Origin: a virus
Lineage: Duplodnaviria; Heunggongvirae; Uroviricota; Caudoviricetes
Virus record (IMG/VR): IMGVR_UViG_2579778956_000001
Location: 1-24,208 of that record
Strand: one strand, 5' to 3'
Length of the DNA stretch: 24,208 nucleotides
Shown here: one piece after another, positions 1 through 19,465 of the stretch
How positions within the stretch are numbered: the first letter of the stretch is position 1
Layout: each line of letters starts with the position of its first letter
Program-made: the position numbers and the translations under genes
The notes under the pieces: generated by a model
What the model saw: the letters and a program-made list of their open reading frames with translations, nothing else
Database searches by the model: none
What the model was told of the DNA's origin: nothing

Positions 1-1053
1 TTACGGGGTAATGCCAACCGCTGCCGCCACTTTGTCGCCACTTGGCAGCGTTGCCAGAGGATTGAAACGGAGCGCCGTTTCCAGATGATCCGGTGCCAGA
101 TGTGCGTAACGCATAGTCATTTTTATATCGTGGTGTCCGAGAATTTTTTGTAAGGCCAGAATGTTTCCACCCGACATCATGAAGTGCGCCGCAAACGTAT
201 GGCGCAGAACGTGTGTGAGTTGACCGCGAGGGAGCACGATAGACGTTTTTTCCATCACGGATAAAAATTGAAAATAGCAGTCTGTGAAGAAATTGAACCC
301 ATCAAGCGCCATGATCTCTTCGTAAAGCTCTTTACTGATAGGGATGCTTCTGTTTTTCTTCCCCTTCGTTCTTACAAAGGTAATTCGGTATTTGGTCACC
401 TGTGAACGAGTAAGATTTACGGCTTCTCGCCAGCGTGCGCCTGTGCTTAAGCATATCTTAACTACCAGTGCCAGAATTGGGTCCTGACGTTTGCAATCAG
501 CCAGTAATTCAACAATCTGCTCATGGGTAAGCCATGCCATCTCTTTTTCTGCGATGGTGAATTTTCGCATGTTCTCCAGTGGGTTCGGATACGACCATTC
601 GCCCAGGCGGGATAGTTCGCTAAAAACACTACTTAGATAGCTTTGCTCCAGGTTAATGGTGACCGGGCTTGCTCCTTTCTTCCATTTCTCGCTGAAGTAG
701 ATCTCACCTGTCAGGCGTTTATCTCGATAGTGGGCAAACATTTTAGAGGTTAGATCAGTTGCAAGGGGATTGCCCAGAGCGTCAACCATCAGCAGCAATT
801 TGTCATAGACATGCTGCCCAGCTGTCAGTGATTTACCATGTAGTTTGAACCATAGCTCAACCACGTCTTTCAGTGTTCGACGATCCACTGATTCACCTAG
901 CCAGGGCTTTGCTTCGGTTTCTTCCATCGTGTGACGCTCAAAAGCCAGTGCTTCGCCTTTGGTGGCGAATTGTTTACGCACACGACGTCCACTACGTCCG
1001 GCGGGGTAACATTCGCAAAGCCATTTTCCTGTGGTGAGTTTTCGTACTGCCAT
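1..1053 (-). CDS. int: P2/186-family tyrosine integrase (site-specific recombinase)
   Basis: 350-aa ORF with the stop codon at window positions 1-3. Contains LSTGARWREA, FVRTKGKK, HVLRHTFAAHFMMSGG, LQKILGHHD and MRYAHL motifs typical of P2-type integrases (catalytic R..HxxR..Y). Sits at the prophage end next to the repressor, as in P2/186. Confidence 0.9.
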   Translation of the reverse strand: MAVRKLTTGKWLCECYPAGRSGRRVRKQFATKGEALAFERHTMEETEAKPWLGESVDRRTLKDVVELWFKLHGKSLTAGQHVYDKLLLMVDALGNPLATDLTSKMFAHYRDKRLTGEIYFSEKWKKGASPVTINLEQSYLSSVFSELSRLGEWSYPNPLENMRKFTIAEKEMAWLTHEQIVELLADCKRQDPILALVVKICLSTGARWREAVNLTRSQVTKYRITFVRTKGKKNRSIPISKELYEEIMALDGFNFFTDCYFQFLSVMEKTSIVLPRGQLTHVLRHTFAAHFMMSGGNILALQKILGHHDIKMTMRYAHLAPDHLETALRFNPLATLPSGDKVAAAVGITP

Positions 1054-1136: not shown

Positions 1137-2813
1137 CTAAGCAACATGTAGTTCATCGTTGGCGGAAGTGGCTGCTTTGCGTTCCTGCTCAATAGCTAGT
1201 GACTCTCTATATTCTTTCGCCTCTGCAAACATTGTCCAGTGGGCATTGATGTTCATATCTTCAATAACCGATTTAATTTCTTTAATATTTACGTTAAAAA
1301 ACTCTTTTCGTGAGTTAATTTTATTGACCTGCTTTTCGTTGAAGACTTTATGCAGATGATTTTCTAATGACGGTGCATCATCACTATAAATCATCGCATG
1401 AACATCGAACGAAAAAGGAACACTAGCATCCCCAAGTTCACGAACACGATCAAGTGGTTCAAGGCGGCGTGTCATTCCAATTTTATATACATCTTCGCCA
1501 AATGAGCCAATATTGCTAATTATATAAACATGGCCTGATCTAGTTTGTTGAGCCATAGAAATAGCTCGTTGGTTTTTAGCTTCAGCTTCTTCATATTTTA
1601 ACTGTAGTTCAGCTATTTTTTGCTCTAAAGCTAAGCGTTGTTCTTCATTTGCAAGCATAAGCTCTTTCGTTGCTTTATTTATAGCTTGCTGAATAGCTTT
1701 TTCTTCTTTTTCGGCTTCTTTTATCGCTTTTTCATACTCTCTACGAGCTCTTTCCTCTTCACGAAGCTGTTCTTTAATCCTTCTTTGCTCCTCTTTTTCT
1801 TCGAGCATAATTTCATTAACTGCAACTCCCCATTTTAGCTCGTTGAGTCGTGCCTGAAGATAGATGTCACTTATTTTTGCGGATCTAAAAGCAGAGCCAT
1901 TATAATTTACAAGTTGAAATGCATCTTTTATTTCTTGGGAAAGTTTTCCAAAATTGTTGTGTTTGACTTTTGATAAAATACTGTCAACTCTTCCATTGAA
2001 GGCATCCAAAACAAAGTTGATAGCAGTATTACGCCTGTTTTGCTCAACATAATCACACGAAGCTGCTTTATTAGTTTTTATTAATGATTTTGTTAACTCC
2101 CTGGCTTTTTGTAATTCCTTGCCTGCATCTGTAAACTCATAATTTTCTGCCAATTCATCAAGTACACTACGGTTAGGGATGATCCATTCATCGCCATAAC
2201 CTTCAATTTTATTTTTCATTGATTTGGCAACTGCTTCATATTTTTCTGCAAACTCTTTAGCTTCATATGCTGAACCAGCAATCTCTTTTGCTCTTTCTTC
2301 TGCATCGGAAATAATTTTTACTGCGTTGTCATTAGCATTTGAGATCAGCTCATTTGCTTTACTGTTGGCATTATCAAGACGTTCTTTGGCTTTCAGGCGT
2401 GCATCGCGAGCGTCTTTGGTGATTGCTATAGCTTCGCTATTAGCGTTGCTTATTGTTATCTGAGCTTGATAACTTGCTTCGTTTACTGTCTTAGCTGCCT
2501 TTATTTGGGCTTCTTCTATTTTTTGCCTAGCTATTGAGTCTGCATTTTTTATCTTATTCTCTGCCTCCATCACTGCGCTGTGCAATTCTTCGTATTGCCA
2601 TAATGGTGCTGCTCGCCCTTCAAGCTCTGATAGATCTCGTGCAGTCTGTGCTAACTTTTCTTGATTTTCACTCAGTTGGCTGGAAAGGGCTATGTTGTTA
2701 GCCGTCAGATTATCTATGGCGGCTTTGTGTTCTTTACTTTGCTTAAATAATATTATAGCTAGAACAGGGGCGAGAAATGCTAATAAGAATATAACGATGG
2801 AAAATGAATTCAT
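1137..2813 (-). CDS. Membrane-anchored coiled-coil protein with DUF4041 and C-terminal T5orf172 (GIY-YIG-like, MUG113) domains; candidate defence/abortive-infection moron
   Basis: 558-aa ORF. N-terminal hydrophobic helix (FSIVIFLLAFLAPVLAIILF), long E/K/A-rich coiled-coil region, and C-terminal GHVYIISN...YKIGMTRRLEPLDRVRELG...PFSFDV...LHKVF...REFF, which matches the T5orf172 pattern from memory. AT-rich relative to the phage backbone. Starts 20 nt after the cI stop with AAGGA as SD. Confidence 0.8.
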   Translation of the reverse strand: MNSFSIVIFLLAFLAPVLAIILFKQSKEHKAAIDNLTANNIALSSQLSENQEKLAQTARDLSELEGRAAPLWQYEELHSAVMEAENKIKNADSIARQKIEEAQIKAAKTVNEASYQAQITISNANSEAIAITKDARDARLKAKERLDNANSKANELISNANDNAVKIISDAEERAKEIAGSAYEAKEFAEKYEAVAKSMKNKIEGYGDEWIIPNRSVLDELAENYEFTDAGKELQKARELTKSLIKTNKAASCDYVEQNRRNTAINFVLDAFNGRVDSILSKVKHNNFGKLSQEIKDAFQLVNYNGSAFRSAKISDIYLQARLNELKWGVAVNEIMLEEKEEQRRIKEQLREEERARREYEKAIKEAEKEEKAIQQAINKATKELMLANEEQRLALEQKIAELQLKYEEAEAKNQRAISMAQQTRSGHVYIISNIGSFGEDVYKIGMTRRLEPLDRVRELGDASVPFSFDVHAMIYSDDAPSLENHLHKVFNEKQVNKINSRKEFFNVNIKEIKSVIEDMNINAHWTMFAEAKEYRESLAIEQERKAATSANDELHVA

Positions 2814-2833: not shown

Positions 2834-3430
2834 TCAATTTGAAACTATTGTACTTCTTATACAAGCAACCACTTCAATATCAGAAAATGCACATTCAAAG
2901 CTATTCTCTGTAGTTGTAATTTTAATCATACCTTTTGGAAGCTTTGTGATTTTTCGAATGGAATAGGTTCCGTCGATGTTGATTAACCAGTGTCCATCAA
3001 GTACTTCAGAAAATTTTTGATCACAAATGTATGTGACAAGCCCATCCTGAATAACAATTGGTGATGAAAGATTTGCAGGAAGAAATGATGAATCGAATAC
3101 ATATGAACCATCTTCAATCATTTTGCCTGCGGTAAGGCGAAACTTGGGAAGCTCTTCTGTGGCTACTGTCAGCGAGCTTTGCTTAAGTCCTTGCCCGGTG
3201 GTTAACCATTTCAGTGAGGTTCCTGTTTCAAGAGCACATTGGATTATCCAGTCTGCAGGAAACGTATCCCGCAAATACCTGTTCGCCAGAGTGCTTTTTG
3301 ATACTTCCAAGTGATCAGCTAAAGCCTGTCGTGTCGTAAAGCCATAAGCTTCGACTAATCGCTCAATCGCAGCCTTACCACCTTTATTGGGATTTATTTT
3401 GATCTCACTTGGGTACTTTGATGTTGACAT
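2834..3430 (-). CDS. cI: 186-type CI immunity repressor (N-terminal HTH, C-terminal oligomerisation domain)
   Basis: 198-aa ORF. N-terminal LVEAYGFTTRQALADHLEVSKSTLANRYLRD...ALETGTSLKWLTTGQG resembles the phage-186 CI HTH domain. Divergent from the apl/cII genes and adjacent to int. No LexA/S24-type Ala-Gly cleavage site or G-D-S-M motif seen. Confidence 0.75.
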   Translation of the reverse strand: MSTSKYPSEIKINPNKGGKAAIERLVEAYGFTTRQALADHLEVSKSTLANRYLRDTFPADWIIQCALETGTSLKWLTTGQGLKQSSLTVATEELPKFRLTAGKMIEDGSYVFDSSFLPANLSSPIVIQDGLVTYICDQKFSEVLDGHWLINIDGTYSIRKITKLPKGMIKITTTENSFECAFSDIEVVACIRSTIVSN

Positions 3431-4869: not shown

Positions 4870-5103
4870 ATGCGTAATATTGAAACCCTCTCGACCAAAA
4901 CCGGACCGGATGACGCAGGGCTTAATATTTTACTGACAGAGGCTCGTCTGGAAGAACGCCGGGCAAGGGCTGAAGCAATGGCAGCTCGCCTTGATAGCCT
5001 GGCGTGTCATATCACATCCCGCCAGCTAACCCACGTCGAAGCGGCAGAACTGCTTCGTGTGACTGCTGAAGCAATCCAGAACGAAGCGCAGGAGATCCAC
5101 TAA
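4870..5103 (+). CDS. Early-region hypothetical protein
   Basis: ATG at 4870 preceded by AGGAG (4856-4860); the ORF-track start at 4864 is a TTG. Stop overlaps the next gene's start. Confidence 0.5.
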   Translation: MRNIETLSTKTGPDDAGLNILLTEARLEERRARAEAMAARLDSLACHITSRQLTHVEAAELLRVTAEAIQNEAQEIH

Positions 5104-5330: not shown

Positions 5331-6184
5331 GCACCATCCTGAAATGGGCGGGAAATAAAACTGCCATAATGTCCGAACTGAAAAAACATCTTCCTGCTGG
5401 CCCGCGACTGGTTGAACCTTTCGCGGGTTCCTGTGCTGTGATGATGGAGACGGATTATCCCAGCTATCTGGTTGCGGATATTAATCCTGATTTAATCAAC
5501 CTCTATAAAAAGGTTGCCGCTGATTGTGAATCGTTTATATCTCGCGCCAGAGTTTTATTTGAGATCGCAAACAGGGAGGTGGCTTATTACAACATAAGGC
5601 AGGAGTTTAATTACTCAACTGAAATTACTGATTTCATGAAAGCGGTATATTTCCTGTATCTCAATCGTCACGGTTACCGTGGTTTATGTCGCTATAACAA
5701 GAGCGGGCATTTCAACATTCCCTACGGTAATTATAAAAATCCGTATTTTCCTGAAAAAGAAATTCGTGCATTTGCAGTAAAAGCCCAGCGGGCAACGTTT
5801 ATCTGCGCCAGCTTTGATGAAACGCTGGCGATGTTGAAGGCGGGGGATGTGGTGTATTGCGATCCGCCGTATGACGGTACGTTTTCCGGCTATCACACTG
5901 ACGGCTTCACTGAAGATGACCAGTATCACCTGGCATGTGTTCTTGAACATCGGTCATCAGAAGGACATCCGGTCATTGTTTCTAACAGTGACACATCCCT
6001 GATCCGTTCGCTGTATCGCAATTTTACTCACCACTACATCAAGGCAAAACGCAGCATCGGTGTGGCAGCTGGCGAGGGTAAATCAGCAACAGAAATCATT
6101 GCTGTTTCCGGGCCGCGCTGCTGGGTGGGATTTGATTATTCGCGTGGCGTGGATAGTTCTGCCGTGTACGGAGTACGTGCATGA
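5327..6184 (+). CDS. dam: Dam-family N6-adenine DNA methyltransferase (orphan, phage-encoded)
   Basis: Start at ATG 5327 (SD GGAGG 5315-5319; ATGA overlap with the TraR stop). ILKWAGNK near the N-terminus, [23 protein letters not shown] and the catalytic DPPY motif closely parallel E. coli Dam. No restriction gene adjacent. Confidence 0.9.
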
Positions 6185-8595
6185 GTCATGCCGATATGAA
6201 CAACTGCTGCGGCTTTAACGAAGCTGCCGCATCGTTCTCATGGAACAGCCCGAAAAAGGCCATTAACCCTTATCTGGACCCGGCGGAAGTTGCGCCGGTT
6301 TCTACGCTTTCAAACCTGATCACTCTGTACGCTGCCGATAACGAGCAGGAACAGCTGCGCCGCGAGGCACTGAGTGATCAGGTCTGGGAGCGTTATTTCT
6401 TTAATGAATCCCGTGATCCTGTCCAGCGCGAAATGGAGCAGGATAAGCTCATTAGCCGGGCAAAGCTGGCGCATGAGCAGCAGCGTTTTAATCCAGACAT
6501 GGTCATTCTGGCTGACGTCAACGCCCAGCCTTCCCATATCAGCAAGCCGCTGATGCAACGTATTGAATATTTCAGCAGCCTGGGCAGGCCAAAGGCTTAT
6601 TCCCGCTATTTGCGTGAGACGATTAAGCCATGTCTGGAACGACTGGAGCATGTCCGCGACTGTCAGCTATCCACTTCTTTTCGCTTTATGGCAAGCCATG
6701 AAGGGCTGGATGGCCTGCTTATCCTGCCTGAAATGAGTCAGGATCAGGTGAAGCGCCTGTCTACCCTTGTCGCTGCGCATATGAGCATGTGCCTTGATGC
6801 AGCTTGTGGCGATTTGTATGCCACCGATGATGTTAAGCCAGAAGAAATCCGCAAGACATGGGAAAAGGTGGCAGCAGAAACCCTGCGTCTGGATGTCATC
6901 CCGCCTGCGTTTGAGCAACTCCGTAGGAAAAGAAACCGCCGTAAACCAGTGCCCTATGAACTCATTCCGGGTTCGCTGGCGCGTATGCTGTGCGCCGACT
7001 GGTGGTATCGGAAATTGTGGAAGATGCGTTGCGAATGGCGGGAAGAGCAGTTGCGTGCTGTCTGCCTGGTCAGCAAAAAAGCATCTCCCTATGTCAGCTA
7101 TGAAGCCGTGATGCATAAACGTGAGCAGCGCCGTAAGTCGCTGGAGTTTTTCCGTTCTCATGAACTGGTGAACGAAGACGGCGACACGCTGGATATGGAA
7201 GATGTGGTAAACGCCAGTAGTAGCAACCCGGCGCATCGCCGCAATGAGATGATGGCATGTGTTAAAGGTCTGGAGCTTATCGCGGAAATGCGCGGTGACT
7301 GCGCCGTTTTCTACACCATCACCTGTCCGTCACGTTTCCATTCCACGCTAAATAACGGCAGGCCCAACCCGACCTGGACAAATGCGACGGTAAGACAAAG
7401 CAGTGATTATCTGGTCGGCATGTTTGCTGCATTTCGTAAGGCGATGCACAAAGCCGGATTGCGCTGGTATGGCGTGCGGGTGGCTGAGCCGCATCATGAC
7501 GGTACAGTTCACTGGCACCTGTTGTGTTTTATGCGCAAAAAAGATCGCCGCGCCATTACTGCTTTGTTGCGTAAGTTTGCCATTCGTGAAGACCGCGAGG
7601 AACTGGGTAATAACACAGGACCACGCTTTAAGTCTGAGTTGATTAACCCGCGCAAAGGTACGCCAACAAGCTACATCGCGAAATACATCAGTAAGAACAT
7701 TGACGGGTGTGGTCTGGCTGGCGAGATCAGCAAGGAAACGGGTAAATCCCTGCGTGATAACGCTGAATACGTTAATGCCTGGGCGTCTCTGCATCGTGTT
7801 CAGCAATTCCGCTTCTTTGGCATTCCGGGGCGTCAGGCTTACCGTGAACTGCGATTGCTGGCTGGTCAGGCGGCAAGGCAACAGGGGGACAAAAAAGCAG
7901 GTGCGCCGGTACTGGATAACCCGCGCCTTGATGCCATTCTGGCTGCTGCTGATGCTGGTTGTTTTGCCACCTACATCATGAAGCAGGGTGGCGTACTGGT
8001 TCCCCGCAAATATCACCTCATCAGAACTGCTTATGAAATCAACGAAGAGCCGACCGCCTATGGCGATCACGGCATTCGTATTTATGGCATCTGGTCACCT
8101 ATTGCAGAGGGCAAGATCTGCACTCATGCCGTGAAGTGGAAAATGGTTCGTAAGGCCGTTGACGTTCAGGAGGCGGCAGCCGACCAGGGCGCTTGCGCCC
8201 CTTGGACTCGTGGCAATAACTGTCCCCTTGCTGAAAATTTGTACCAACAAGGGAAAGACAAATCAGCTGATGGAGATACCAGAACGGATATCACCCGCAT
8301 GGATGACAAGGAGTTGCACGATTACCTGCACAGTATGAGCAAAAAAGAGCGCCGGGAACTGGCAGCAAGGTTACGCCTGGTGAAACCGAAACGGCGTAAA
8401 GACTACAAACAACGAATTACAGACCATCAGCGACTGCAGCTCGTGTATGAACTGAAGTCCAGGGGATTTGATGGCAGCGAGAAAGAGGTCGATTTACTGC
8501 TTCGCGGCGGCAGTATTCCGTCAGGAGCAGGCCTGCGTATCTTCTATCGGAACCAGCGTTTGCAGGAAGATGATAAGTGGCGAAACCTGTATTAA
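6181..8595 (+). CDS. A: Replication initiation protein gpA (rolling-circle replication endonuclease, HUH family)
   Basis: 804-aa ORF. HUH-like VHWHLLCF and twin-tyrosine SYIAKYISK motifs. ATGA overlap with the dam stop. Size and position match P2 gene A. Confidence 0.9.
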
Positions 8596-8687
8596 TTACG
8601 CGGGTTAACAATTCGTGCTCTTAATAATACCAGGCATATCAGGGTGATGAGCGTAAAAAAACGTTTTACATCAGTAAGATTATTATA

Positions 8688-8707
8688 TACTGTAAATATA
8701 AACAGTG
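8688..8707. promoter_or_regulatory. LexA (SOS) box overlapping a putative promoter upstream of the small ORF at 8748
   Basis: taCTGTaaatataaACAGtg (CTGT 8690-8693, 8-nt AT-rich spacer, ACAG 8702-8705) matches the consensus CTGT-N8-ACAG. Embedded in an AT-rich region with a TTTACA -35-like hexamer upstream, and about 45 bp before an ORF with a strong SD (AGGAGG 8738-8743). Confidence 0.6.
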
Positions 8708-8747
8708 GTTATGTATACAGTATTGCTTTGGTGTCATAGGAGGAAAG

Positions 8748-8936
8748 ATGCAGGACTATTTTTTGGAGTCTTTGAAGCTCCAGCGCATTGATTTTTTTCT
8801 TAAGCTTGTAGCGGCTAGTGAGTGTAGTGATGAAGAGAAGGGGCTGGCTCTGCAGTGGGTTTCAGAGCTGACTGATGAGTTGATGGCGAAAATTCGTGCC
8901 CATGAATATAACCGTGTAATGGATCTTCCCGGTTAG
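8748..8936 (+). CDS. Small hypothetical protein under putative LexA control (possible antirepressor-like or SOS-induced factor)
   Basis: 62-aa ORF with strong SD AGGAGG and an upstream LexA box. Position corresponds to the 186 tum / P2 tin-old region downstream of gene A. No confident homology recognised. Confidence 0.5.
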   Translation: MQDYFLESLKLQRIDFFLKLVAASECSDEEKGLALQWVSELTDELMAKIRAHEYNRVMDLPG

Positions 8937-8949
8937 CAGCAGGGGCGTT

Positions 8950-8980
8950 GCTGGCGTGAGAACTAGATTCTCGCGTCAGC
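8950..8980 (+). other. Long imperfect palindrome / RNA hairpin downstream of the small ORF
   Basis: GCTGGCGTGAGAA (8950-8962), 5-nt loop, TTCTCGCGTCAGC (8968-8980): a 13-bp stem with two G-U wobbles in RNA. No U-tract follows, so not a canonical terminator. Confidence 0.35.
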
Positions 8981-9106
8981 AAGGTCAACTAAGGATTGAA
9001 ACAGAAAGCCCTTGAAAACAGTAGCAAGTTGCCTATTATCTACGCTGTATTTAATCGATGTCATTGGCTGTAATACCTTAAGTGATATTGAAAGGCGGTG
9101 TGGGGA

Positions 9107-10267
9107 ATGGATCTGGCTAAAGTTGAAGAACGCGTCCGAAGAGTCATAGGGACAATGGAGTCTGCCGAGCTTGATGAATATTTTTGGGGTAAGCGCTCGG
9201 GTTTGGGAGACTCATTACCTCCGTATTATCTCGTTTATTTTCTTTTGGTAGATTTACTGAAATTTAAAAATCGTGGGGTTGATGAGAAGATTTCTTTTTC
9301 TATCCCAGTCCGGATTGATGGGACTGTCGTAATTATAGAACATCGTAAACTTGGTTTAGATATATTTATCAAGAGTGATGATGATATAGAGCAAGCTAAA
9401 ACTGTTTTGAGACATATTTGCGCAGGGGTTAAAGCTGCTACGAAATTTTTTGACTCGCTTGCAGACAATGCAGCAAAGACTTCAAATCTAAATGTTAATA
9501 ACAATGCTAATTCTCTTTATGATAGGTTTTGCTATTTTTTAGAGCTATATAAACAGAAGCTTGATGAAGTTGCTGCTGGCCAAGAGTCTAAACTGGAAGT
9601 TGATAGTGAGTTTAAGTCTGATAATTTTTTCAGCCTGTTACAATCCACTTTTGAACAATCAAATAAGATAATTGAACTCCGAAGAGAGGCTATGTGGTTA
9701 GCAACGTCTGCAATTGAGTCATTTTTCAATTGGACCGAGCATGTTTTCATTCTTATTGCAATCTTGAAGGGTGAGATAAAAAATGGGAATGATGTGGCTG
9801 ATAAAGTTGGGAAAGAATGGGGGGAGAAATTCAAATTAGCCATTGATATTAACTCTTCCAGTCTAAAATCATTCTATGATCGTTTACTTATACTCAGAAA
9901 ACAGGTGCGTAATTTTGTAGCCCATGGCGCCTTCGGTAAGGATGGGCAAGCATTGGAATTTCACTCAAGTGTAGGGGCTGTGCCACTATTGCTGCCTCAT
10001 CGAGAAAATAAAGAACGTTTCAAGTTTGGAAATGGTGTGCATTTTTTGGCACCTGAAGCAATGCAATTAATTAACGATTTTCTTGAAAATTTGTGGCAGG
10101 GAGAACTGTCCCCAGCAAAAATTTATATTGAATCTGGATGTCCTTTAATACTATCTTACGTAACTAATGGAACCTATGCGGAGGCGATGAAATCAGAAAG
10201 GAATATGGACTTATTGGTTAATTACTTAACTCGTGAGATGGATAATGCCGCAAACATGGATTGGTAA
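9107..10267 (+). CDS. Hypothetical protein with HEPN-like R-N-x3-H motif (candidate RNase-type defence/abortive-infection effector)
   Basis: ORF with ATG at 9107 (alternative GTG at 9098; SD-like AAGG at 9092-9095, about 11 nt upstream). AT-rich codon usage. Contains LRKQVRNFVAHG, which fits the HEPN consensus R-[NSH]-x3-H. No other domain recognised. Lies in the gpA-Q hotspot. Confidence 0.65.
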   Translation: MDLAKVEERVRRVIGTMESAELDEYFWGKRSGLGDSLPPYYLVYFLLVDLLKFKNRGVDEKISFSIPVRIDGTVVIIEHRKLGLDIFIKSDDDIEQAKTVLRHICAGVKAATKFFDSLADNAAKTSNLNVNNNANSLYDRFCYFLELYKQKLDEVAAGQESKLEVDSEFKSDNFFSLLQSTFEQSNKIIELRREAMWLATSAIESFFNWTEHVFILIAILKGEIKNGNDVADKVGKEWGEKFKLAIDINSSSLKSFYDRLLILRKQVRNFVAHGAFGKDGQALEFHSSVGAVPLLLPHRENKERFKFGNGVHFLAPEAMQLINDFLENLWQGELSPAKIYIESGCPLILSYVTNGTYAEAMKSERNMDLLVNYLTREMDNAANMDW

Positions 10268-10594
10268 ACTCTAGGTGCGGGTTACAAACACACAAAAAAT
10301 CTTCCTGAGTTAGGTGTTATCCCAACCCAAGGCTGTGTCAGGAAAACTTCATATGGCGCATGAGATCGCATGATAGTATGACGATCGTTTTCGCTGATGC
10401 CAGCCTGAGCTGGCGGGCTGTTGCATATGTCATGCAGGCGCATGAAAACCACTGCATAAAGCGGGTAGGCGTGGCGGGGATACGAGCGCGCGCTTGTGGC
10501 TTTGAATACTCAAATCATGTAATGTTAATTGTCCAAGCTCAGATGTTATTTTAGAATCGTAGTTCACTAGAACTGTGTTAATTGGGAAGTATTC

Positions 10595-11845
10595 ATGGAT
10601 AAACAACGTGCTTCACAAGTTTTTGTGCCTGGCGGTATGCCGAAATTGACTTATGTTGAGCGCTCTGAAGGAGAGGTTCATGGAAAACTGGAGAGTGCTA
10701 AAGATAATTTATGTAAGTTAGTGACTTTAACTGGGCAAACAAAGTCTGGTAAGACTGTAATTACAAGAATGGTATTCCCAGTCATGGACGATGATGTTGT
10801 ATGGATTGACGGTGGGAGTATTACAACTGAAGATGATATTTGGGAGCAGGTATTAGAAAAACTAAATGGCTACCATAGTATTGAAGTTAATTCTGGAGAA
10901 AATAGTGCTATTGCAGTTAGTGGTAAGGTATCGGGGACCGCAAGTGCATTCGTTGTTAAAGGTACAGGTGAGGCTGGTTTAGTTCAGACGGATGGAAAGT
11001 CAAATGGTAATAAAAAATCGCGAACGATATCCGCAAAAAGTTCTGCACTAAAAGTTCTCTCTCAAACCAAGTCTAGTCTTATAATTGATGACTTTCATTA
11101 CCTTGATCGTGACCTACAAGGTAACTTTATTAGAGCGATAAAACCATTAGTTTTTGATGGAGTACCAGTTGTACTGATAGCCATTCCACATCGAAGATAT
11201 GATGCTGTAAAAGTTGAAAAAGAAATTACCGGACGGCTAGAAAATATTTCCATGCCTTCGTGGGAAATGGATGAACTAAAACAAATAGCAAAAGTGGGAT
11301 TTCCTCTGTTAAACATGGAAGTTAGTGATTCAGTAATTGATAAAATTGCCAATGAATCATTGGGAAGCCCTCATTTAATGCAAGAGTTTTGCAAGGCTAT
11401 ATGCTTAGCAAATAATGTTAAAGAAACTTTGCCGAGTAAGTTAGTTATTAATTCTTTAGATGATGATATTTTTAGAAAGGTTGCAGAATCCACTGGGAAA
11501 ATAGTATTTGATAAGTTAGCTAGTGGCCCTAATCAGCGAACTGACAGAATTCCTAGAAAACTGAAAAGTGGTGAGGAAGTAGATATATATAAAGTTGTAT
11601 TATATGCATTGTCACATATGAAACCAGGAATGCAAAGTATTCAGTATGAGGAGTTAAGATCAGCCATACGCGAACTGGTGCAAGATGCTCCTCCACAAGC
11701 TCATGAGGTTACTCGTGTTATAGAAAAAATGGCTAAAATAGCTGCTACGGAAGAAGCTTCAACTCCTGTAATAGATTGGGATAAGGAGGACCGAAAGTTG
11801 CATATTACTGATCCATTTTTTGCTTTTTATCTAAAATGGCGATAA
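10595..11845 (+). CDS. P-loop NTPase (Walker A/B ATPase), candidate defence-system ATPase
   Basis: 416-aa ORF with SD GGGAAG upstream. Walker A LTGQTKSGKT (about residue 45) and Walker B-like hhhhDD (SLIIDDFHYLD). AT-rich. No nuclease (Toprim/HNH) motif recognised, so not an obvious Old/Gabija-type protein. Confidence 0.8.
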   Translation: MDKQRASQVFVPGGMPKLTYVERSEGEVHGKLESAKDNLCKLVTLTGQTKSGKTVITRMVFPVMDDDVVWIDGGSITTEDDIWEQVLEKLNGYHSIEVNSGENSAIAVSGKVSGTASAFVVKGTGEAGLVQTDGKSNGNKKSRTISAKSSALKVLSQTKSSLIIDDFHYLDRDLQGNFIRAIKPLVFDGVPVVLIAIPHRRYDAVKVEKEITGRLENISMPSWEMDELKQIAKVGFPLLNMEVSDSVIDKIANESLGSPHLMQEFCKAICLANNVKETLPSKLVINSLDDDIFRKVAESTGKIVFDKLASGPNQRTDRIPRKLKSGEEVDIYKVVLYALSHMKPGMQSIQYEELRSAIRELVQDAPPQAHEVTRVIEKMAKIAATEEASTPVIDWDKEDRKLHITDPFFAFYLKWR

Positions 11846-11877: not shown

Positions 11878-12915
11878 CTAATTTGAATGAAGTTTATATT
11901 CTTCGAACTGTATCACTTTTTCTTTTAACCAAACATTTAACTCTTCAAATCTTTTTTGCAATGGTATTAGTTCATTGCGTACAAATACATTACTTGCCTT
12001 CTCCACATCCCCAAACCCCCCAACATTATTTGGCATTATCCCCATCATCTGTGGCGGCACGCGGTGTGCCGCCATCATGTCATCGCGACTAACATTTTTG
12101 ATATTCAGAAATTCATCCTTCGCTGCGACTTCTGACAACGGGATAATCTGAAGTCCGTCTTTTTTACCATTAGGCGAGTACATAAACAGATTGCGGAAGT
12201 TACCCGGACCTTTGGCGCTTTTCATTGCGTTGCGGAGGTTGTTCACATCCTCCTGGTTCTGCGCGGCATCGGTCATGTACATGATGAAGCCGGCATGACT
12301 GCCGTTAATGTAATACTTGCGGCGGAACAGCGTGGCGGACTCGTTGAGCAAAGCGGATGGGATGGCAGAAAGATAGCCGGGCAGGCCGTAGATCTCCTGG
12401 TTGATGTCCGGTTCCATCAGATGAAAAATGCTGCCTTTCGTGAACTGATACGGCTGGGTTGTCATACCGTATTGCACAAACCAGTAGGTATCCAGGTCTA
12501 ACCCGCGTCGGGTGTATTTTGCCAGCGCAGGCTCAAGGGCGATAACTTCACCGAATCGGTTCGTGCGTTTCTCCAGGTAGGCGTTACCAAATACCAGATA
12601 GTCCTGTACAAAACGCGAAAAAGCCTGTTGGCTGAGCAGCGGATGAGGGATATAGGTACTGGTCAGAATGTTGCACTTTACTGCAATCGGGGAACTGTGA
12701 TGCACGGCAGCCCGGAAGGTGCGCGCCAGTCCGTCAAAACTTACGGGTGGCTCGTACCAACACTCCATCTGTACGCATTCCACATAGTCCAGCAGTTCGC
12801 GGCGGTCCAGAACAGGAACGGGATCACCGAAGCTGAATGCTTCGGCTGAAGTCTGGCTTTTATGCTGGATCTGTTTCGTCGACGCAGCGCGGTTCTTCTT
12901 ACTCTTTCCCATCAA
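11878..12915 (-). CDS. Q: Portal vertex protein gpQ
   Basis: 345-aa ORF; size and position (upstream of and translationally coupled to the terminase gene) match P2 gene Q. Start overlaps the terminase stop. Confidence 0.85.
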   Translation of the reverse strand: MMGKSKKNRAASTKQIQHKSQTSAEAFSFGDPVPVLDRRELLDYVECVQMECWYEPPVSFDGLARTFRAAVHHSSPIAVKCNILTSTYIPHPLLSQQAFSRFVQDYLVFGNAYLEKRTNRFGEVIALEPALAKYTRRGLDLDTYWFVQYGMTTQPYQFTKGSIFHLMEPDINQEIYGLPGYLSAIPSALLNESATLFRRKYYINGSHAGFIMYMTDAAQNQEDVNNLRNAMKSAKGPGNFRNLFMYSPNGKKDGLQIIPLSEVAAKDEFLNIKNVSRDDMMAAHRVPPQMMGIMPNNVGGFGDVEKASNVFVRNELIPLQKRFEELNVWLKEKVIQFEEYKLHSN

Positions 12916-14678
12916 AAAATCTCCACAATATTGCTGGTATTGGCGGACTCGCCCTGCAGCGGTTCGTTAAACAGTGCGTGCATTGTTGCCCAGGCCAGAT
13001 CGGCATGGCTGGCTTCTTCGCTGCGGCTGGCTTCATAGGTCGGGCGGTTGCCACTGGCAGTGGTAGCGCGACGGATTGCCATAAATGACTGCGCAATGTC
13101 GGTGTGCCCGGCGTCAAACTCCAGACGGCGGTGGCTGATAATGTCGTAGGCCTTGAGTACCAGGGCGTTTTTAACATTGGGGTTGTAGACAAACTCCCGG
13201 ACGGCAGGAAAGAACGCTTTCACGTTCTCATAAACCCCGTGACCAACGCCGGTTGAGTCGATACCGATATAGGTCACGTTGTACTGTTCGGTCAGTTTTT
13301 TGATGGCGTCAGCCTGGGCGCGGAAGTCCATCCCGCGCCACTGGTGACGCTCAAGAATGCGGAACTTACCACCAGGCACGGCTGGCGGTGCCACCACCAC
13401 GCATCCGGCGCTGTCGCCGTTTTGCGTACCTTTTGCCGGGTCATAACCGATCCACACTTCGCGCCAGCCAAACGGGCGCAGAGCCAGTGCATGAAAGTCG
13501 GTCCAGACTTCCCAGCTGTCCACCATGCACGCCTGCAGCTCGCTGAGCGGAAATACGGACGCGAGATCGTCCACAAACTCGCACATCAGCAGGTTCTGGT
13601 ATTCGTCCGGGCTGTACTCCATGCGCAACTGGTCAAGGTCGAACAGGTTACAGCCGCCGCGCACCGCATCTTCCACGGTGACTATCTGGCGGTATTGCCC
13701 GTCTGCGCACAGCAGGCCGGGGGCCAGATTGCTGTGGGACAGGTCGATGTCCACCTTGTCGGCCTTGTTGCGCCCACGGTTGAACAGCGCACCGGACCAG
13801 AACGGATAAGCACTGTGTGTCAGGCTGGATGGCGTGGAAAAATAGGTTTGTCGCCATTTTTTGTGAATAGCCATACCGGAAGCCACTTTGCGCAGCTCCT
13901 GGAATTTCGGTATCCAGAAATATTCATCCAGATACAGGTTGCCGTGATAACTCTGGGCCGTGCGGGCATTGGTGCCGAGGAAGTAAAGCGTGGCCCCGTT
14001 AGGAAGCACCATCGGATCGCCTTTCAACTCCACCCCCACTTCTTTGGCGAAGTCGATGATGTACTGCTTAAAGACGTGGGCCTGTGCCTTGCTGGCGGAA
14101 AGGAAAATCTGGTTACGTCCGGTAAGCAGGGCGTCAATCAGGGCTTCACGGGCAAAGTAAAAGGTCGCGCCGATCTGGCGTGACTTCAGCAGGTTGCGGA
14201 TGCGGTTGGTTTTTCCGGCTTCCCACCAGTGGCGCTGGTAGTTGAACATGGAGGAATGGAAGATTTCTTCCAGCTTCTCAATCTGCTCATCGGTGAAAAC
14301 ATTCTTTTCCGGCTGACGGCGTGGGCCTTTATTGCGGTTGGCGACGTTAGGGTTTAAGTCGGCTTCGTTGCCGCCATTGTTAAACTTGCCGATCCGCGCG
14401 TGGCGCTCCGACTGGCGCGCCAGCAGGTCAATCTCTTTGAAATCTTTCCCTTCTTTGTGCTCCTTCATGATGAGCTGGCAGTAGCGTGCGGCGGTGGTGA
14501 GCTGCATCTGATCCAGCGGCCCATAGTCACCCCACTTGTCGCGTTTTTTCCAGCTGTGAACGGTTGCAACTTTCTCGCCCAGCATTTCAGCAATGCGGGC
14601 TACGCGGTATCCCTGAAAGTACAGCAGCATGGCCTGCCGACGGGGATCGAGATCTGCGGGTGTCAGTGTGGTGTTCAT
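12912..14678 (-). CDS. P: Terminase large (ATPase) subunit gpP
   Basis: 588-aa ORF (P2 gpP is about 590 aa), divergent from the scaffold gene O, with the Q gene immediately downstream in the same orientation. Confidence 0.9.
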   Translation of the reverse strand: MNTTLTPADLDPRRQAMLLYFQGYRVARIAEMLGEKVATVHSWKKRDKWGDYGPLDQMQLTTAARYCQLIMKEHKEGKDFKEIDLLARQSERHARIGKFNNGGNEADLNPNVANRNKGPRRQPEKNVFTDEQIEKLEEIFHSSMFNYQRHWWEAGKTNRIRNLLKSRQIGATFYFAREALIDALLTGRNQIFLSASKAQAHVFKQYIIDFAKEVGVELKGDPMVLPNGATLYFLGTNARTAQSYHGNLYLDEYFWIPKFQELRKVASGMAIHKKWRQTYFSTPSSLTHSAYPFWSGALFNRGRNKADKVDIDLSHSNLAPGLLCADGQYRQIVTVEDAVRGGCNLFDLDQLRMEYSPDEYQNLLMCEFVDDLASVFPLSELQACMVDSWEVWTDFHALALRPFGWREVWIGYDPAKGTQNGDSAGCVVVAPPAVPGGKFRILERHQWRGMDFRAQADAIKKLTEQYNVTYIGIDSTGVGHGVYENVKAFFPAVREFVYNPNVKNALVLKAYDIISHRRLEFDAGHTDIAQSFMAIRRATTASGNRPTYEASRSEEASHADLAWATMHALFNEPLQGESANTSNIVEIF

Positions 14679-14724
14679 GGCACAAACCTACAACCTTGAA
14701 TGAAGGCTTTCCCCGCCTGCGGTT

Positions 14725-14742
14725 TGTGTGGTTGTCGGTACA
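14725..14742. promoter_or_regulatory. TGT-N12-ACA dyad (Ogr/Delta-type late-promoter activator site) in the divergent P/O promoter region
   Basis: TGTgtggttgtcggtACA at 14725-14742 within the 142-bp P-O intergenic region, centred about 88 bp upstream of the O start codon. P2 late promoters carry a TGT-N12-ACA element near -55. Confidence 0.45.
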
Positions 14743-14820
14743 AATACCGCGCATTGTTTCACTGCCCCCATCACCGCAACCATAAGGCTCCAGTAAGTTT
14801 TTTCTAACGGAGCACGGCTC

Positions 14821-15459
14821 ATGACAGTGAAAGCAAAGCGTTTTCGCATCGGGGTGGAAGGTGCCACCACCGACGGACGCGAAATCCAGCGTGAATGGCT
14901 GGAACAGATGGCAGCCAGCTACAACCCGGCGGTGTATACCGCGCTGATTAACCTTGAGCACATCAAGTCTTATCTGCCGGACAGCACCTTTAACCGCTAC
15001 GGCAAGGTGACGGCGCTGTTTGCTGAAGAAATCAAGGAAGGTCCGCTGGCAGGCAAGATGGCGCTGTATGCCGACGTTGAGCCAACGGAGTCCCTGGTGG
15101 AACTGGTGAAAAAAGGCCAGAAATTATTCACATCTATGGAAGTTAGCCCGAAGTTCGCTGATACGGGCAAAGCCTACCTGGTCGGCCTGGCTGCCACTGA
15201 TGACCCTGCCAGTCTGGGCACTGAAATGCTGACATTCAGCGCCAGTGCAGCCCATAACCCGCTGGCAAACCGCAAGCAGAATCCCGCCAATCTTTTTACC
15301 GCTGCAGAGGAAACGGTGATCGAACTGGAAGAAATCCAGGATGACAAACCGTCCCTGTTTGCCCGTGTCACGGCGCTGTTCACCAAAAAAGAGCAGTCCG
15401 ATGACGCCCGGTTCTCTGATGTGCATAAGGCCGTGGAACAACTGGCAGGGGATCGTTGA
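14821..15459 (+). CDS. O: Capsid scaffolding protein gpO, C-terminally truncated at a deletion junction (likely nonfunctional)
   Basis: 212-aa ORF with an N-terminus of gpO type (FRIGVEGATTDGREI...YLVGLAATDDPASLGTE). P2 gpO is about 284 aa as I recall. The ORF ends in a short non-homologous tail (QLAGDR*) exactly where tail-tube homology begins in another frame. Confidence 0.75.
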   Translation: MTVKAKRFRIGVEGATTDGREIQREWLEQMAASYNPAVYTALINLEHIKSYLPDSTFNRYGKVTALFAEEIKEGPLAGKMALYADVEPTESLVELVKKGQKLFTSMEVSPKFADTGKAYLVGLAATDDPASLGTEMLTFSASAAHNPLANRKQNPANLFTAAEETVIELEEIQDDKPSLFARVTALFTKKEQSDDARFSDVHKAVEQLAGDR

Positions 15460-15904
15460 GTCGCTGACGCTGCCGAAATTTACCCGCAAATATGAGAAGT
15501 ATCGCGGCGGCGGAATGCCGGGTGCGGTGGATGTGGATCTGGGGCTTGATGACAGTGCGCTGGACACAGAATTTTCCATTGGTGGTACTGAATTGCTGCT
15601 GTTTAAACAGATGGGTAAAGCCACGGTGGATGGCATCCAGCTGCGCTTTACCGGCTCTATTCAGCGTGACGATACCGGGGAAGTGCAGGCCGTGGAGCTT
15701 GTCGTGCGTGGACGTCACAAAGAAGTGGATTCCGGCGAGTGGAAGACGGGCGAAAGCAACACCACCAAAGTGACCAGTACCAACAGCTACGCGAAGCTGA
15801 CCATCAATGGTGAGGTGCTCTATGAAGTGGACCTTATCAACATGGTGGAAATTGTGGACGGTGTGGACCTGATGGAAGCGCACCGCAACGCCCTCGGCCT
15901 CTGA
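15446..15904 (+). pseudogene. FII: Tail tube protein FII, 5'-truncated fragment fused downstream of gpO
   Basis: Frame of ORF 15341..15904. Homology to the P2 major tail tube protein begins about at QGIVESLTLPKFTRKYEKYRGGGMPGAVDVDLGLDD and runs to the C-terminus (...EAHRNALGL). About 25 N-terminal residues and any start codon/SD are missing; the upstream part of the ORF overlaps gpO out of frame. Confidence 0.7.
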
Positions 15905-15958
15905 TATATCTGAACGGCGCGGGATACCGCGCCAGAACCCAATTGACAGGACAGCAAA

Positions 15959-16261
15959 ATGAGCGATAAGCAGACTGAAAAGACCATTCAACTGGATACC
16001 CCCATCAAGCGCGGTAAAACAGAAATCACCGAAATTGTGCTGCGTAAACCGCAGTCCGGTGCGCTGCGCGGTACACGCCTGCAGGCCATTATGGATATGG
16101 ATGTGAACGCGATGATGACCGTGATCCCCCGCATCTCCAGTCCGGCACTGACTGCACAGGAAATTGCAGAGATGGACCCGGCAGATCTCACTGCCATGTC
16201 GGTTGAGGTTGTCACTTTTTTGTTGAAGAAGTCGGTGCTTGCCGGTTTACCGACAGCCTGA
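15959..16261 (+). CDS. E: Tail assembly chaperone gpE
   Basis: 100-aa ORF directly upstream of the tape-measure gene, containing a slippery heptamer near its 3' end, as in P2 E/E' (analogous to lambda G/GT). Confidence 0.8.
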   Translation: MSDKQTEKTIQLDTPIKRGKTEITEIVLRKPQSGALRGTRLQAIMDMDVNAMMTVIPRISSPALTAQEIAEMDPADLTAMSVEVVTFLLKKSVLAGLPTA

Positions 16262-16395
16262 CGGTTGACGATCTGGTGGCAGATATCGCCACCATTTTTC
16301 ACTGGCCGCCATCCGTTACTGACGTTATGCCGCTGACCGAAGTGCTGGAATGGCGGTATAAAGCGATTCAGAGAAGCGGGGCCAACGATGAGTGA
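15959..16395 (+). CDS. E': gpE+E' extended chaperone produced by programmed -1 ribosomal frameshift
   Basis: After a -1 slip at T TTT TTG (16216-16222) the reading frame stays open to TGA at 16393-16395, overlapping the T start codon (16388). Translated by hand: ...FVEEVGACRFTDSLTVDDLVADIATIFHWPPSVTDVMPLTEVLEWRYKAIQRSGANDE*. Confidence 0.7.
16216..16222 (+). other. Programmed -1 frameshift slippery heptamer (X XXY YYZ = T TTT TTG)
   Basis: TTTTTTG, in frame as ac[T TTT TTG] in gene E. Conserved arrangement upstream of tape-measure genes. Confidence 0.7.
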
Positions 16396-19300
16396 TAACA
16401 ACCTGCGTCTGCGGGTCATTCTTAATGCGGTTGACAAGCTCACCCGCCCATTTCGATCTGCGCAGGCCAGTTCAAGAGAACTGGCTGCTGCTGTCAAAAA
16501 ATCCCGCGATGCAATAAAGCAGCTTGATCAGGCCGGGAGCAGTCTGGACAGCTTCCGAAAGCTGCAGGCAGAAAATCAGAAATTAGGCGACAGGCTGAAC
16601 TATGCCCGCCAGCGTGCAAATTTGCTCAGTCAGGAACTGGGAGCGATGGGGCCGCCTTCGCAACGTCAGGTTGTTGCTCTGGGCCGTCAACGGCTGGCTG
16701 TTCAGCGCCTGGAAGAACGCCAGAAAAAGCTGCAGCAGCAGACGGCGCTTGTGCGTGCTGAACTGTACCGGGCGGGAATTTCTGCGAAAGACGATGCGGG
16801 AGCAACTGCCCGTTTAGCCCGTGAAACATCACGTTATAACCAGGAACTTTCGAAACAGGAGGCGCGGCTGAAGCGACTGGGGGAAGCTCAGCGCAGGATG
16901 AATGCAGCGCGTGCCAGTTATGCCCGTTCGCTGGAGGTGCGTGATCGTATTGCAGGTGCCGGAGCCACCACCACGGCTGCAGGGCTGGCAATGGGTGCGC
17001 CAGTGATGGCGGCAGTAAAAAGCTATACCAGCATGGAAGATGCCATGAAAGGTGTGGCAAAGCAGGTCAATGGTCTGCGTGACGATAATGGCAACCGCAC
17101 TGCACGTTTTTATGAAATGCAGGATGCCATCAAGGCTGCCAGCGAACAGTTGCCGATGGAAAACGGTGCGGTGGACTTCGCTGCACTGGTTGAAGGTGGT
17201 GCGCGCATGAACGTCGCAAACCCTGACGACAGCTGGGAAGATCAGAAACGTGACCTGCTGGCCTTCGCCAGTACGGCAGCAAAGGCGGCAACAGCCTTTG
17301 AGCTGCCAGCGGATGAACTGTCAGAAAGTCTGGGGAAAATCGCCCAGCTCTACAAAATTCCTACCCGCAATATTGAACAGCTCGGTGATGCGCTGAACTA
17401 TCTGGATGATAACGCCATGTCGAAAGGGGCAGACATCATTGATGTCATGCAACGCCTGGGCGGTGTGGCTGATCGTCTGGATTATCGTAAAGCGGCGGCG
17501 CTGGGTTCCACCTTTCTGACACTGGGCGCTGCGCCAGAGGTTGCAGCCAGTGCAGCAAACGCGATGGTGCGTGAATTGTCCATTGCCACCATGCAAAGCA
17601 AGAGTTTCTTTGAAGGGATGAATCTGCTGAAACTCAATCCTGAAGTGATTGAAAAGCAGATGACGAAGGATGCGATGGGAACTATCCAGCGCGTACTGGA
17701 GAAGGTGAACGCACTGCCGCAGGATAAACGTCTGTCTGCCATGACCATGTTGTTTGGTAAAGAGTTTGGCGATGACGCGGCGAAACTGGCAAACAACCTG
17801 CCGGAACTGCAGCGCCAGCTAAAACTGACAGCGGGCAATGATGCGCTCGGCTCCATGCAGAAAGAATCCGACATTAACAAGGACTCACTTTCTGCGCAGT
17901 GGTTGCTGGTCAAAACCGGAGCGCAGAACACCTTCAGCAGCCTGGGCGAAACGCTGCGCCAGCCGCTGATGGATATTCTGTACACGGTGAAAAGCATCAC
18001 GGGGGCGTTGCGCCGCTGGGTGGAAGCTAACCCGGAACTGACAGGCACACTGATGAAAGTAGCCGCTGTGGTGGCTGCGGTTACCGTAGGCCTCGGAACC
18101 TTAGCGGTGGCGCTGGCTGCAGTGCTGGGGCCGCTGGCAGTGATTCATCTGGGATTCTCTGTGCTGGGTATCAAAACGTTACCTTCCGTTACGGCAGCAG
18201 TAACCCGAACCAGCAGCGCGTTGTCCTGGCTGGCTGGCGCACCACTGGCACTGCTGCGACGCGGGCTTGCTTCATCGGGCAACGCCGCAGGTTTACTTAC
18301 TGCGCCGTTGTCGTCTTTGCGCCGCACGGCATTACTGACGGGAAATGTCCTGAAAACTGTAGCAGGTGCGCCGGTTGCACTTTTGCGGTCTGGATTATCC
18401 GGTTTACGTGCTGTTGCTGTGATGTTTATGAATCCTCTGGCGGTACTGCGCGGTGGACTGGCCGCCGCAGGCACGGTGCTGCGAGTACTGGCATCTGGTC
18501 CACTGGCGATGCTGCGCGTTGCCCTGTATGCCGTATCTGGTCTGTTAGGTGCTCTGCTCAGTCCGATAGGTCTTGTGGTTACTGCACTGGCGGGCGTGGC
18601 GCTGGTTGTCTGGAAATACTGGCAACCCATCACCGCATTTCTTGGTGGCGTGGTGGAAGGATTCAAAGCGGCGGCAGGTCCCGTCAGTGAAGCATTCGAA
18701 CCGCTTAAGCCCGTGTTCCAGTGGATTGGCGACAAAGTACAGGCGCTGTGGGGCTGGTTTACTGATCTGCTGACGCCCGTTAAGTCGACCTCTGCCGAAC
18801 TGCAGAGTGCAGCGGCAATGGGGCGACGATTCGGGGAGGCACTGGCGGAAGGGCTAAATATGGTCATGCATCCGCTGGACTCCCTGAAATCCGGCGTTTC
18901 CTGGTTGCTGGAGAAGCTCGGCATTGTCAGTAAAGAGGCCGCAAAGGCAAAACTGCCGGAAAGCGTGACGCGTCAGCAACCTGCGACGGTGAATGCAGAC
19001 GGTAAAGTGATGATGCCATCGGGTGGTTTTCCATCATGGGGATATGGCTTTGCGGGGATGTATGACAGCGGCGGGTATATCCCGCGCGGGCAGTTTGGCA
19101 TCGTCGGTGAAAACGGGCCGGAAATTGTTAACGGCCCGGCAAATGTGACCAGCCGGAGAAATACAGCTGCACTGGCTGCCGTTGTTGCCGGAATGATGGG
19201 AGTTGCTGCCGCGCCAGCAGAGCTTCCACCGTTGCACCCTTTGGCACTTCCCGCGAAAGGTGGAGAAGCAATTGTGAGTCGCGCAGCCACTGTGCCGCTC

Positions 19301-19465
19301 GTTCAACGGATTGAGGCACCGACGCAGATCATCATTCAGACGCAGCCAGGACAAAGTGCGCAGGATATTGCGCGGGAGGTGGCACGCCAGCTTGATGAAC
19401 GTGAACGCAGGCTGAAGGCAAAAGCCAGGAGTAACTACAGCGATCAGGGGGGATACGACGCATGA
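16388..19465 (+). CDS. T: Tail tape measure protein gpT
   Basis: 1025-aa ORF; coiled-coil-rich N-terminal half, Ala/Gly/Leu-rich hydrophobic repeats in the middle. Follows E/E' and precedes U and D. Confidence 0.9.
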   Translation: MSDNNLRLRVILNAVDKLTRPFRSAQASSRELAAAVKKSRDAIKQLDQAGSSLDSFRKLQAENQKLGDRLNYARQRANLLSQELGAMGPPSQRQVVALGRQRLAVQRLEERQKKLQQQTALVRAELYRAGISAKDDAGATARLARETSRYNQELSKQEARLKRLGEAQRRMNAARASYARSLEVRDRIAGAGATTTAAGLAMGAPVMAAVKSYTSMEDAMKGVAKQVNGLRDDNGNRTARFYEMQDAIKAASEQLPMENGAVDFAALVEGGARMNVANPDDSWEDQKRDLLAFASTAAKAATAFELPADELSESLGKIAQLYKIPTRNIEQLGDALNYLDDNAMSKGADIIDVMQRLGGVADRLDYRKAAALGSTFLTLGAAPEVAASAANAMVRELSIATMQSKSFFEGMNLLKLNPEVIEKQMTKDAMGTIQRVLEKVNALPQDKRLSAMTMLFGKEFGDDAAKLANNLPELQRQLKLTAGNDALGSMQKESDINKDSLSAQWLLVKTGAQNTFSSLGETLRQPLMDILYTVKSITGALRRWVEANPELTGTLMKVAAVVAAVTVGLGTLAVALAAVLGPLAVIHLGFSVLGIKTLPSVTAAVTRTSSALSWLAGAPLALLRRGLASSGNAAGLLTAPLSSLRRTALLTGNVLKTVAGAPVALLRSGLSGLRAVAVMFMNPLAVLRGGLAAAGTVLRVLASGPLAMLRVALYAVSGLLGALLSPIGLVVTALAGVALVVWKYWQPITAFLGGVVEGFKAAAGPVSEAFEPLKPVFQWIGDKVQALWGWFTDLLTPVKSTSAELQSAAAMGRRFGEALAEGLNMVMHPLDSLKSGVSWLLEKLGIVSKEAAKAKLPESVTRQQPATVNADGKVMMPSGGFPSWGYGFAGMYDSGGYIPRGQFGIVGENGPEIVNGPANVTSRRNTAALAAVVAGMMGVAAAPAELPPLHPLALPAKGGEAIVSRAATVPLVQRIEAPTQIIIQTQPGQSAQDIAREVARQLDERERRLKAKARSNYSDQGGYDA

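Follow-up and report, generated by a model that had tools for sequence, protein, structure and literature searches.

A putative LexA-controlled tumA antirepressor gene behind a double SOS box in a defective 186-like prophage of the P2 family

The window, by which we mean the whole stretch of 24,208 nt analysed here, is a 186-like prophage of the P2 family and of the Fels-2/DuoHS type, as judged by gene order and domain searches (Table 1). A 62-codon ORF, here called tumA, is the first gene downstream of the replication gene A, on the same strand, and stands ahead of a cos-proximal accessory region and the portal gene. This placement after A is common to the window, 186, DuoHS, Fels-2 and PSP3 in the records compared. 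Directly past ogr, the RybB sRNA (Rfam RF00110, 105 bits) at 21431-21509(-) marks the host flank, with ybjL at 21589-23274(-). The insertion region, rcdA / rybB-ybjL, is that of DuoHS in E. coli HS.

The prophage is defective, with int, cI, cII and A intact and about 11.2 kb missing relative to DuoHS, from the interior of the scaffold gene O to the interior of the tail-tube gene FII. Window positions 11952-15437 align with DuoHS as far as mid-gpO, and positions 15435-23155 pick up within the tail-tube gene, the junction lying at 15435-15437 and the missing stretch corresponding to 26098-37281 of the DuoHS record (L004). The deletion removed N, M, L, X, holin, lysozyme, lysB/C, R, S, V, W, J, I, H, G and FI, which include capsid, lysis, baseplate, fibre and sheath genes. 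This junction was found in none of the top E. coli genome matches. As the prophage is devoid of capsid, lysis and most tail genes, the switch discussed below cannot give productive induction here.

Table 1. Features of the window around tumA and of the surrounding prophage
Feature	Position	Strand	Remarks
int	1-1053	-	
DUF4041 gene	1137-2813	-	adjoins int
cI immunity repressor	2834-3430	-	Phage_CI_repr + Phage_CI_C; presumed TumA target
apl-, cII- and fil-like genes, dam	between cI and A		
Replication gene A	6181-8595	+	Phage_GPA 2e-127; TAA stop 8593-8595
Intergenic region	8596-8747		152 nt, between gene A and the 62-codon ORF
A-tract	8655-8661	+	just 5' of the -35; AAAAA at least 90% conserved in 39 aligned upstream regions
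-35 hexamer TTTACA	8665-8670	+	TTGACA 5/6; TTTAC/TTTCA in nearly all homologous loci
-10 region	8686-8693	+	TACTGT 8688-8693, 17-nt spacer, as annotated for 186 p95
SOS box 1 (predicted LexA operator), TACTGTAAATATAAACAGTG	8688-8707		consensus 17/20
SOS box 2 (predicted), CAGTGGTTATGTATACAGTA	8703-8722		consensus 15/20; shares 5 bp (CAGTG) with box 1
Shine-Dalgarno AGGAGG	8738-8743	+	(A/G)GGAGG in most loci
tumA, 62-codon ORF	8748-8936	+	ATG 8748, TAG 8934-8936
Conserved stem-loop	8944-8986	+	arms 8948-8962 and 8968-8982; 15-bp stem plus extension
Accessory gene	9107-10267	+	
Accessory gene	10595-11845	+	
Portal Q	11878-12915	-	terminase P also on the minus strand

The intergenic region between A and tumA carries a promoter laid out like p95 of phage 186. 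The distance from the -35 hexamer to the LexA box is the same as for the annotated -35 of 186 p95, and the left half of box 1 is itself the TACTGT -10 hexamer, again as in the annotated p95. The -10 could also be TATACT at 8686-8691, for which the spacer is 15 nt; with either choice, LexA at box 1 would cover both the -10 and the predicted start site. Among the aligned loci TATACTGT is conserved in the -10 region, and the A-tract is a possible UP-like element. The tumA promoter escaped a scan for consensus promoters, since TACTGT agrees with TATAAT at just three of six positions. Box 1 stands 40 nt upstream of tumA. An earlier note on this DNA, made from its letters and open reading frames, had described a near-perfect SOS box that overlaps the promoter region of a 62-aa ORF with a consensus Shine-Dalgarno sequence, the first gene behind gpA. 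All of its coordinates proved correct, the box indeed overlaps the -10 in a p95-like layout, and the 186 record bears out its statement that 186 holds p95-tum at this position.

The boxes were judged by their mismatches to the consensus and by comparison with published colicin E1 values. When up to three mismatches to the full 20-mer LexA consensus were allowed, box 1 was the single site in the window, and none of 100 shuffles contained any. The bare core CTGT-N8-ACAG is weak evidence on its own, being found once in the window against 0.32 expected and at least once in 30 of the 100 shuffles. Conservation across loci argues more strongly for an SOS box than these chance statistics do. The larger dyad described in the earlier note is present (ATACTGTA at 8687-8694 and TACAGTAT at 8716-8723), but it is better read as a second SOS box that overlaps the first in the geometry of colicin operators, with GTG in place of CTG in its left half.

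Conservation was followed in 40 loci, comprising 37 fetched loci with homologues of the ORF, from about 20 enterobacterial genera, together with the window, DuoHS and Fels-2. In 37 of them a CTG-N10-CAG core precedes the homologous ORF by no more than 130 nt. In the alignment of upstream regions the half-sites of the box are kept while its 8-nt spacer is variable; the TTTAC(A) hexamer, the A-tract and the Shine-Dalgarno sequence are likewise conserved, and the spacer between -35 and -10 varies freely. Among the exceptions, one locus (L011) is truncated by a contig end, and in another, from Siccibacter turicensis (L039:2871-3186), the tumA homologue is frameshifted and the core is gone, as if operator and gene had decayed together. 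In Erwinia piriflorinigrans (L038) the right half-site is also lost. Twenty-five of the 40 loci, all of the Enterobacteriaceae-type branch, show the double core CTG-N10-CAG-N12-CAG, and box 2 is absent from the Pantoea/Erwinia branch, 186 and PSP3, which have a single box. Box 1 is identical in the window, DuoHS and Fels-2, and the intergenic region of the window is nearly base-for-base equal to those of both phages, the two boxes included.

Dual overlapping SOS boxes were reportedly described for ColE1 cea by Lu and Chak in 1996. The ColE1 operator TGCTGTATATAAAACCAGTGGTTATATGTACAGTA, at ColE1 5061-5095, is made of two 20-bp boxes with 5 bp (CAGTG) in common, as in the window. Over this stretch the window is identical to ColE1 at 29 of 35 nt and Fels-2 at 31 of 35, box 2 of Fels-2 being exactly the second ColE1 box. 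Box 1 of the window is nearer to the consensus than its ColE1 counterpart (TACTGT...ACAG as opposed to TGCTGT...CCAG). Whereas the dual operator controls a toxin/lysis operon in colicin plasmids, in the window it precedes an antirepressor gene. Colicin dual operators bind two LexA dimers, which results in very tight repression (Kamensek et al. 2010, PMC2994835). By analogy, the operator of the window may also accommodate two LexA dimers.

The substitution pattern of tumA points to a real gene under purifying selection. Over the first 53 codons of the homologue alignment, the variable columns are distributed 30/16/49 by codon position, and codon differences relative to the window amount to 530 synonymous and 276 non-synonymous ones. 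The protein, which the earlier note had been unable to match to Tum, is identical at 57 of 60 residues (95%) to the 62-aa product of DuoHS tum (ECHS_RS04495), and 92% identical to STM2728 of Fels-2. Its relation to the Tum of 186 is more distant. No alignment to 186 Tum was obtained by BLASTP, and when two shallow alignments were compared by hhalign, residues 5-44 matched 5-44 colinearly, though with a probability of only 8% and an E value of 0.004; the homology to 186 Tum thus rests on cross-hits to PHROG families and on intermediate sequences. TumA matches phrog_698 (4.7e-36), phrog_8554 (3.7e-8) and phrog_1993 (2.5e-3), and residues 1-70 of 186 Tum match the same three families (5.9e-6, 3.4e-12 and 1.5e-23, respectively). 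An exhaustive HMMER profile search retrieved 87 cluster representatives of the ORF family. Dozens of intermediates match both the ORF profile and a profile of the Tum N-terminus, with values of 1e-12 to 1e-8 on the latter; one of them, P0261, scored 4.1e-15 library-wide on the ORF profile and 1.1e-11 on the Tum N-terminal one.

A joint alignment leading from the window protein to 186 Tum is colinear and ungapped, with the shared motif E-x3-L-(Q/E)-R-(I/V)-x-(L/M)-x2-R-L-x5-C-x3-(D/E)-(K/R)-x-(L/I)-A-x5-E-(L/I). These comparisons argue that the ORF and the N-terminal part of 186 Tum, the half without DinI similarity, make up a single continuous family. The fold predicted by AlphaFold is a two-helix hairpin (pLDDT 87.8), and a conserved cysteine, Cys26, lies in the turn that joins the helices. 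The DinI-like gene tumB was absent from the window in a tblastn search with the DuoHS DinI-like protein; the same kind of search found such a gene in 24 of the 37 fetched loci and in DuoHS, Fels-2, PSP3 and 186, so that tumB is missing from the window and from about one third of the loci. In the window tumA is directly followed by a hairpin, with no DinI-like domain fused to it or encoded downstream. Judging by these sequence relationships, the ORF is the stand-alone N-terminal antirepressor half of Tum, TumA, and not an accidental truncation. The earlier suggestion of a novel or truncated antirepressor under SOS control therefore holds as regards an SOS-controlled antirepressor; novelty and truncation are contradicted by DuoHS tum, STM2728 and PSP3 TumA.

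The hairpin behind tumA has a folding energy of -31.3 kcal/mol (z = -5.1) and shows compensatory changes at 7 of 17 pairs across nine loci, PSP3 included. Copies of it stand behind tumA or behind tumB in Fels-2-like phages and PSP3, and it was also located at L002:6383-6435, L006:3431-3483, L013:3432-3484, L019:3432-3484 and L043:9552-9604. Rfam holds no family for it. The stem-loop has no U-tract, and a consensus scan found no canonical terminator between tumA and the cargo genes; termination at the hairpin is thus not assured. The element may serve as a terminator, to stabilise the RNA, as an RNase III site or as a boundary for recombination. Its position coincides exactly with the change from conserved sequence to variable cargo. 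Among 5426 complete E. coli genomes, about 1100 contain the segment made of the end of A, the operator and tumA; in most of these homology ends at about position 8985, and only 10 continue into the first cargo gene of the window.

This cargo region is the known gpA-gpQ defence hotspot of P2-like phages (Rousset et al. 2022, PMC9122126; also PMC13586616), and tumA lies on the conserved side of its boundary. Neither of these two papers mentions tum, LexA or SOS. The 416-aa AAA-type protein encoded at 10595-11845 resembles the PADLOC candidate PDC-S59 (1.2e-31), and the 386-aa protein encoded at 9107-10267 has a faint Csx1-HEPN match (E 0.04). The DUF4041 protein encoded next to int resembles PADLOC PD-Lambda-1 (2.6e-119); the three accessory genes of the window occupy two P2 hotspots.

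The earlier note had also proposed co-option of the SOS promoter for the expression of the cargo genes upon DNA damage. On such a reading the ORF would be a leader or minor product. The cargo is indeed on the same strand as tumA, with no canonical intrinsic terminator in between, and in 186 the terminator t95a acts only partially, p95 transcripts reaching orf97 according to the 186 record. However, the module of promoter, tumA and hairpin is found in the same approximately 1100 E. coli genomes, homology mostly ending behind it, and other genes follow it in L002, DuoHS and Fels-2. The cargo is a separate island of low GC content (35-39%, against 50-54% in the phage core), and a strong covarying hairpin closes the module. 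Promoter-like hexamers occur 5' of both cargo genes (9012-9039 and 10529-10557); since such matches are found at chance frequency, they only weakly support independent cargo promoters. Moreover, the ORF is under strong purifying selection and the corresponding gene is required in DuoHS. The proposal finds no support in this comparison, and we consider it quite improbable. The promoter, we conclude, exists to express tumA, although partial read-through into the cargo, as at 186 t95a, could still take place.

Since the prophage is defective, the module might instead be a non-functional relic, a LexA box and an ORF that have not yet decayed. The large deletion described above fits this view, as it removed N, M, L, X and the lysis, baseplate, fibre and sheath genes, and joint decay of box and ORF is known from the frameshifted Siccibacter locus. 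Nevertheless, the promoter, both boxes, the Shine-Dalgarno sequence and the ORF of the window are all intact and nearly identical to those of the functional DuoHS and of Fels-2, as are cI, int, cII and A preserved, and SOS-induced synthesis of TumA would still work whatever the later fate of the phage, which makes a relic very improbable. Hardly credible at all is another kind of SOS modulator, DinI-like or a "levan regulatory protein", with no antirepressor function: some records do label family members "levan regulatory (domain) protein", and RefSeq labels 186 tum as DinI, but the DinI similarity of Tum is limited to residues 72-142 while the ORF aligns to residues 5-44, Pfam, PADLOC and PDB sequence searches with the ORF gave no match, the DinI-like protein is a separate downstream gene in DuoHS, Fels-2 and the fetched loci that carry it, and loss of the 62-aa gene alone blocks DuoHS induction (PMC12055606).

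The segment 8655-8986 is very probably the SOS operon of a 186-like P2-family prophage of the Fels-2/DuoHS type. The repressor that it would act upon is consistent with this. The CI protein of the window has the same domain architecture as 186 CI, with 33% identity to it along its length and 55% to DuoHS CI, and no Peptidase_S24 domain was found in it by domain search. As this CI is without the S24 autocleavage domain, an antirepressor is the expected route to SOS induction. In the undamaged cell, LexA dimers would sit on box 1, covering the -10 and the predicted start site, and probably also on the overlapping box 2, keeping the TTTACA-N17-TACTGT promoter shut. Upon DNA damage, RecA would become active and LexA would cleave itself, the promoter would fire and the 62-aa TumA would be made. 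By homology with 186 Tum, TumA would then bind the 186-type CI and block its binding to the operator, CI itself being unable to sense RecA for want of an autocleavage domain. With CI out of action, the early lytic promoter would be derepressed. The stem-loop would end or stabilise the short transcript ahead of the unrelated defence cargo.

This scheme is built on observed sequence features, their conservation and homology, and on the genetic need for tum and a cleavable LexA in DuoHS, whose protein is 95% identical; the pairing of TumA and CI in the window is assumed by analogy, its CI being only 55% identical to that of DuoHS. The two proteins have indeed diverged to very different extents between window and DuoHS (8748-8936 and 2834-3430 compared with L004:19620-19808 and L004:13701-14270), TumA being 95% identical as opposed to 55% for CI. 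The similarity of the CI proteins is concentrated in the N-terminal HTH domain. This pattern suggests that TumA may recognise a conserved surface of CI and could act across immunity types.

Because TumA is near-invariant while the CI proteins diverge, and because a defective prophage keeps an intact, tightly LexA-locked tumA without tumB, we considered whether the TumA of this prophage might act in trans and induce co-resident heteroimmune prophages of the Fels-2/186 type during the SOS response. Such an action would resemble the crosstalk seen for Gifsy antirepressors. On this view the colicin-type double operator might also require more damage for induction than does 186 with its one box. 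All this is a speculation that we regard as unlikely. In a weaker variant, damage-dependent read-through past the U-less hairpin may boost the defence cargo.

The gene and operator reported here constitute an already known antirepressor switch, and there is little new biology in them. The same gene and operator were genetically tied to DuoHS induction in 2025 (PMC12055606), and the split into tumA and tumB was already known in 2002 from Fels-2 and PSP3. The value of the finding lies mainly in annotation: a tumA label flags a P2-like prophage as SOS-inducible and shows where the gpA-gpQ defence hotspot borders on conserved sequence. In the records examined the RefSeq name of the protein is "hypothetical", and phrog_698 is listed in PHROGs as of unknown function. 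Many entries of the family are 87-101 aa long, their start having been called upstream, across the SOS operator. Over-long or misnamed entries include P0010, P0014, P0055-P0072 and others, as well as MK416009 and MK422454 among phage records. All such entries could be renamed TumA. As regards regulation, the double SOS box and the covarying hairpin at the end of the module are minor points.

Among known systems, DuoHS is very similar to the window. Its operator and promoter are essentially identical, with both SOS boxes, the gene occupies the same place after gpA, and the two prophages share their backbone and their attachment region (rcdA / rybB-ybjL). Ortiz de Ora et al. (Nat Microbiol 2025, PMC12055606) call ECHS_RS04495 tum in their supplementary file 3, and in their study deletion of tum or a non-cleavable lexA abolished induction by mitomycin C; this evidence is a genetic requirement and not CI binding. 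The two differ in that tum of DuoHS is followed, at a distance of 10 nt, by a DinI-like gene that the window lacks, in that DuoHS is complete and inducible whereas the window has an 11 kb deletion in the late region, and in their cargo.

Fels-2 (STM2728 / STM2726.1) likewise has a stand-alone short antirepressor gene behind a LexA box after gpA, with the same double box as the window. According to the account given by Lemire et al. 2011 (PMC3121763), Bunny et al. 2002 found tum split by a stop codon in Fels-2 and PSP3, and the upstream PSP3 gene to be the antirepressor. In its own record, PSP3 has a gene labelled tumA ("UV induction of prophage") and, behind it, the DinI-like tumB. PSP3 shares with the window the tumA gene and the terminal hairpin; its TumA belongs to the 186-like sequence branch, with about 18% identity to the window protein, and it has a single box. 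Both Fels-2 and PSP3 keep tumB, unlike the window.

In coliphage 186 the p95-tum SOS operon, reportedly described by Brumby et al. in 1996, occupies the same genomic position, with its TACTGT -10 also serving as the left half of the LexA box, and its target is a CI of the same type without S24. The Tum of 186 has 146 aa, a DinI-like part being fused to it as its C-terminal half, and the window ORF is the counterpart of its N-terminal part only. Moreover, 186 has a single SOS box and the canonical U-tract terminator t95a, in contrast to the double box and U-less hairpin of the window. Binding of 186 Tum to CI, which prevents operator binding, was demonstrated biochemically by Shearwin et al. 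1998, as related in PMC3121763. The antirepressors GfoA/GftA of Gifsy prophages and AntC of N15 (PMC3121763) follow the same logic, a small LexA-repressed antirepressor directed against a non-cleavable repressor. Their protein families are unrelated to TumA, and in Gifsy prophages dinI comes first in the gene order, unlike in operons of the type found in the window.
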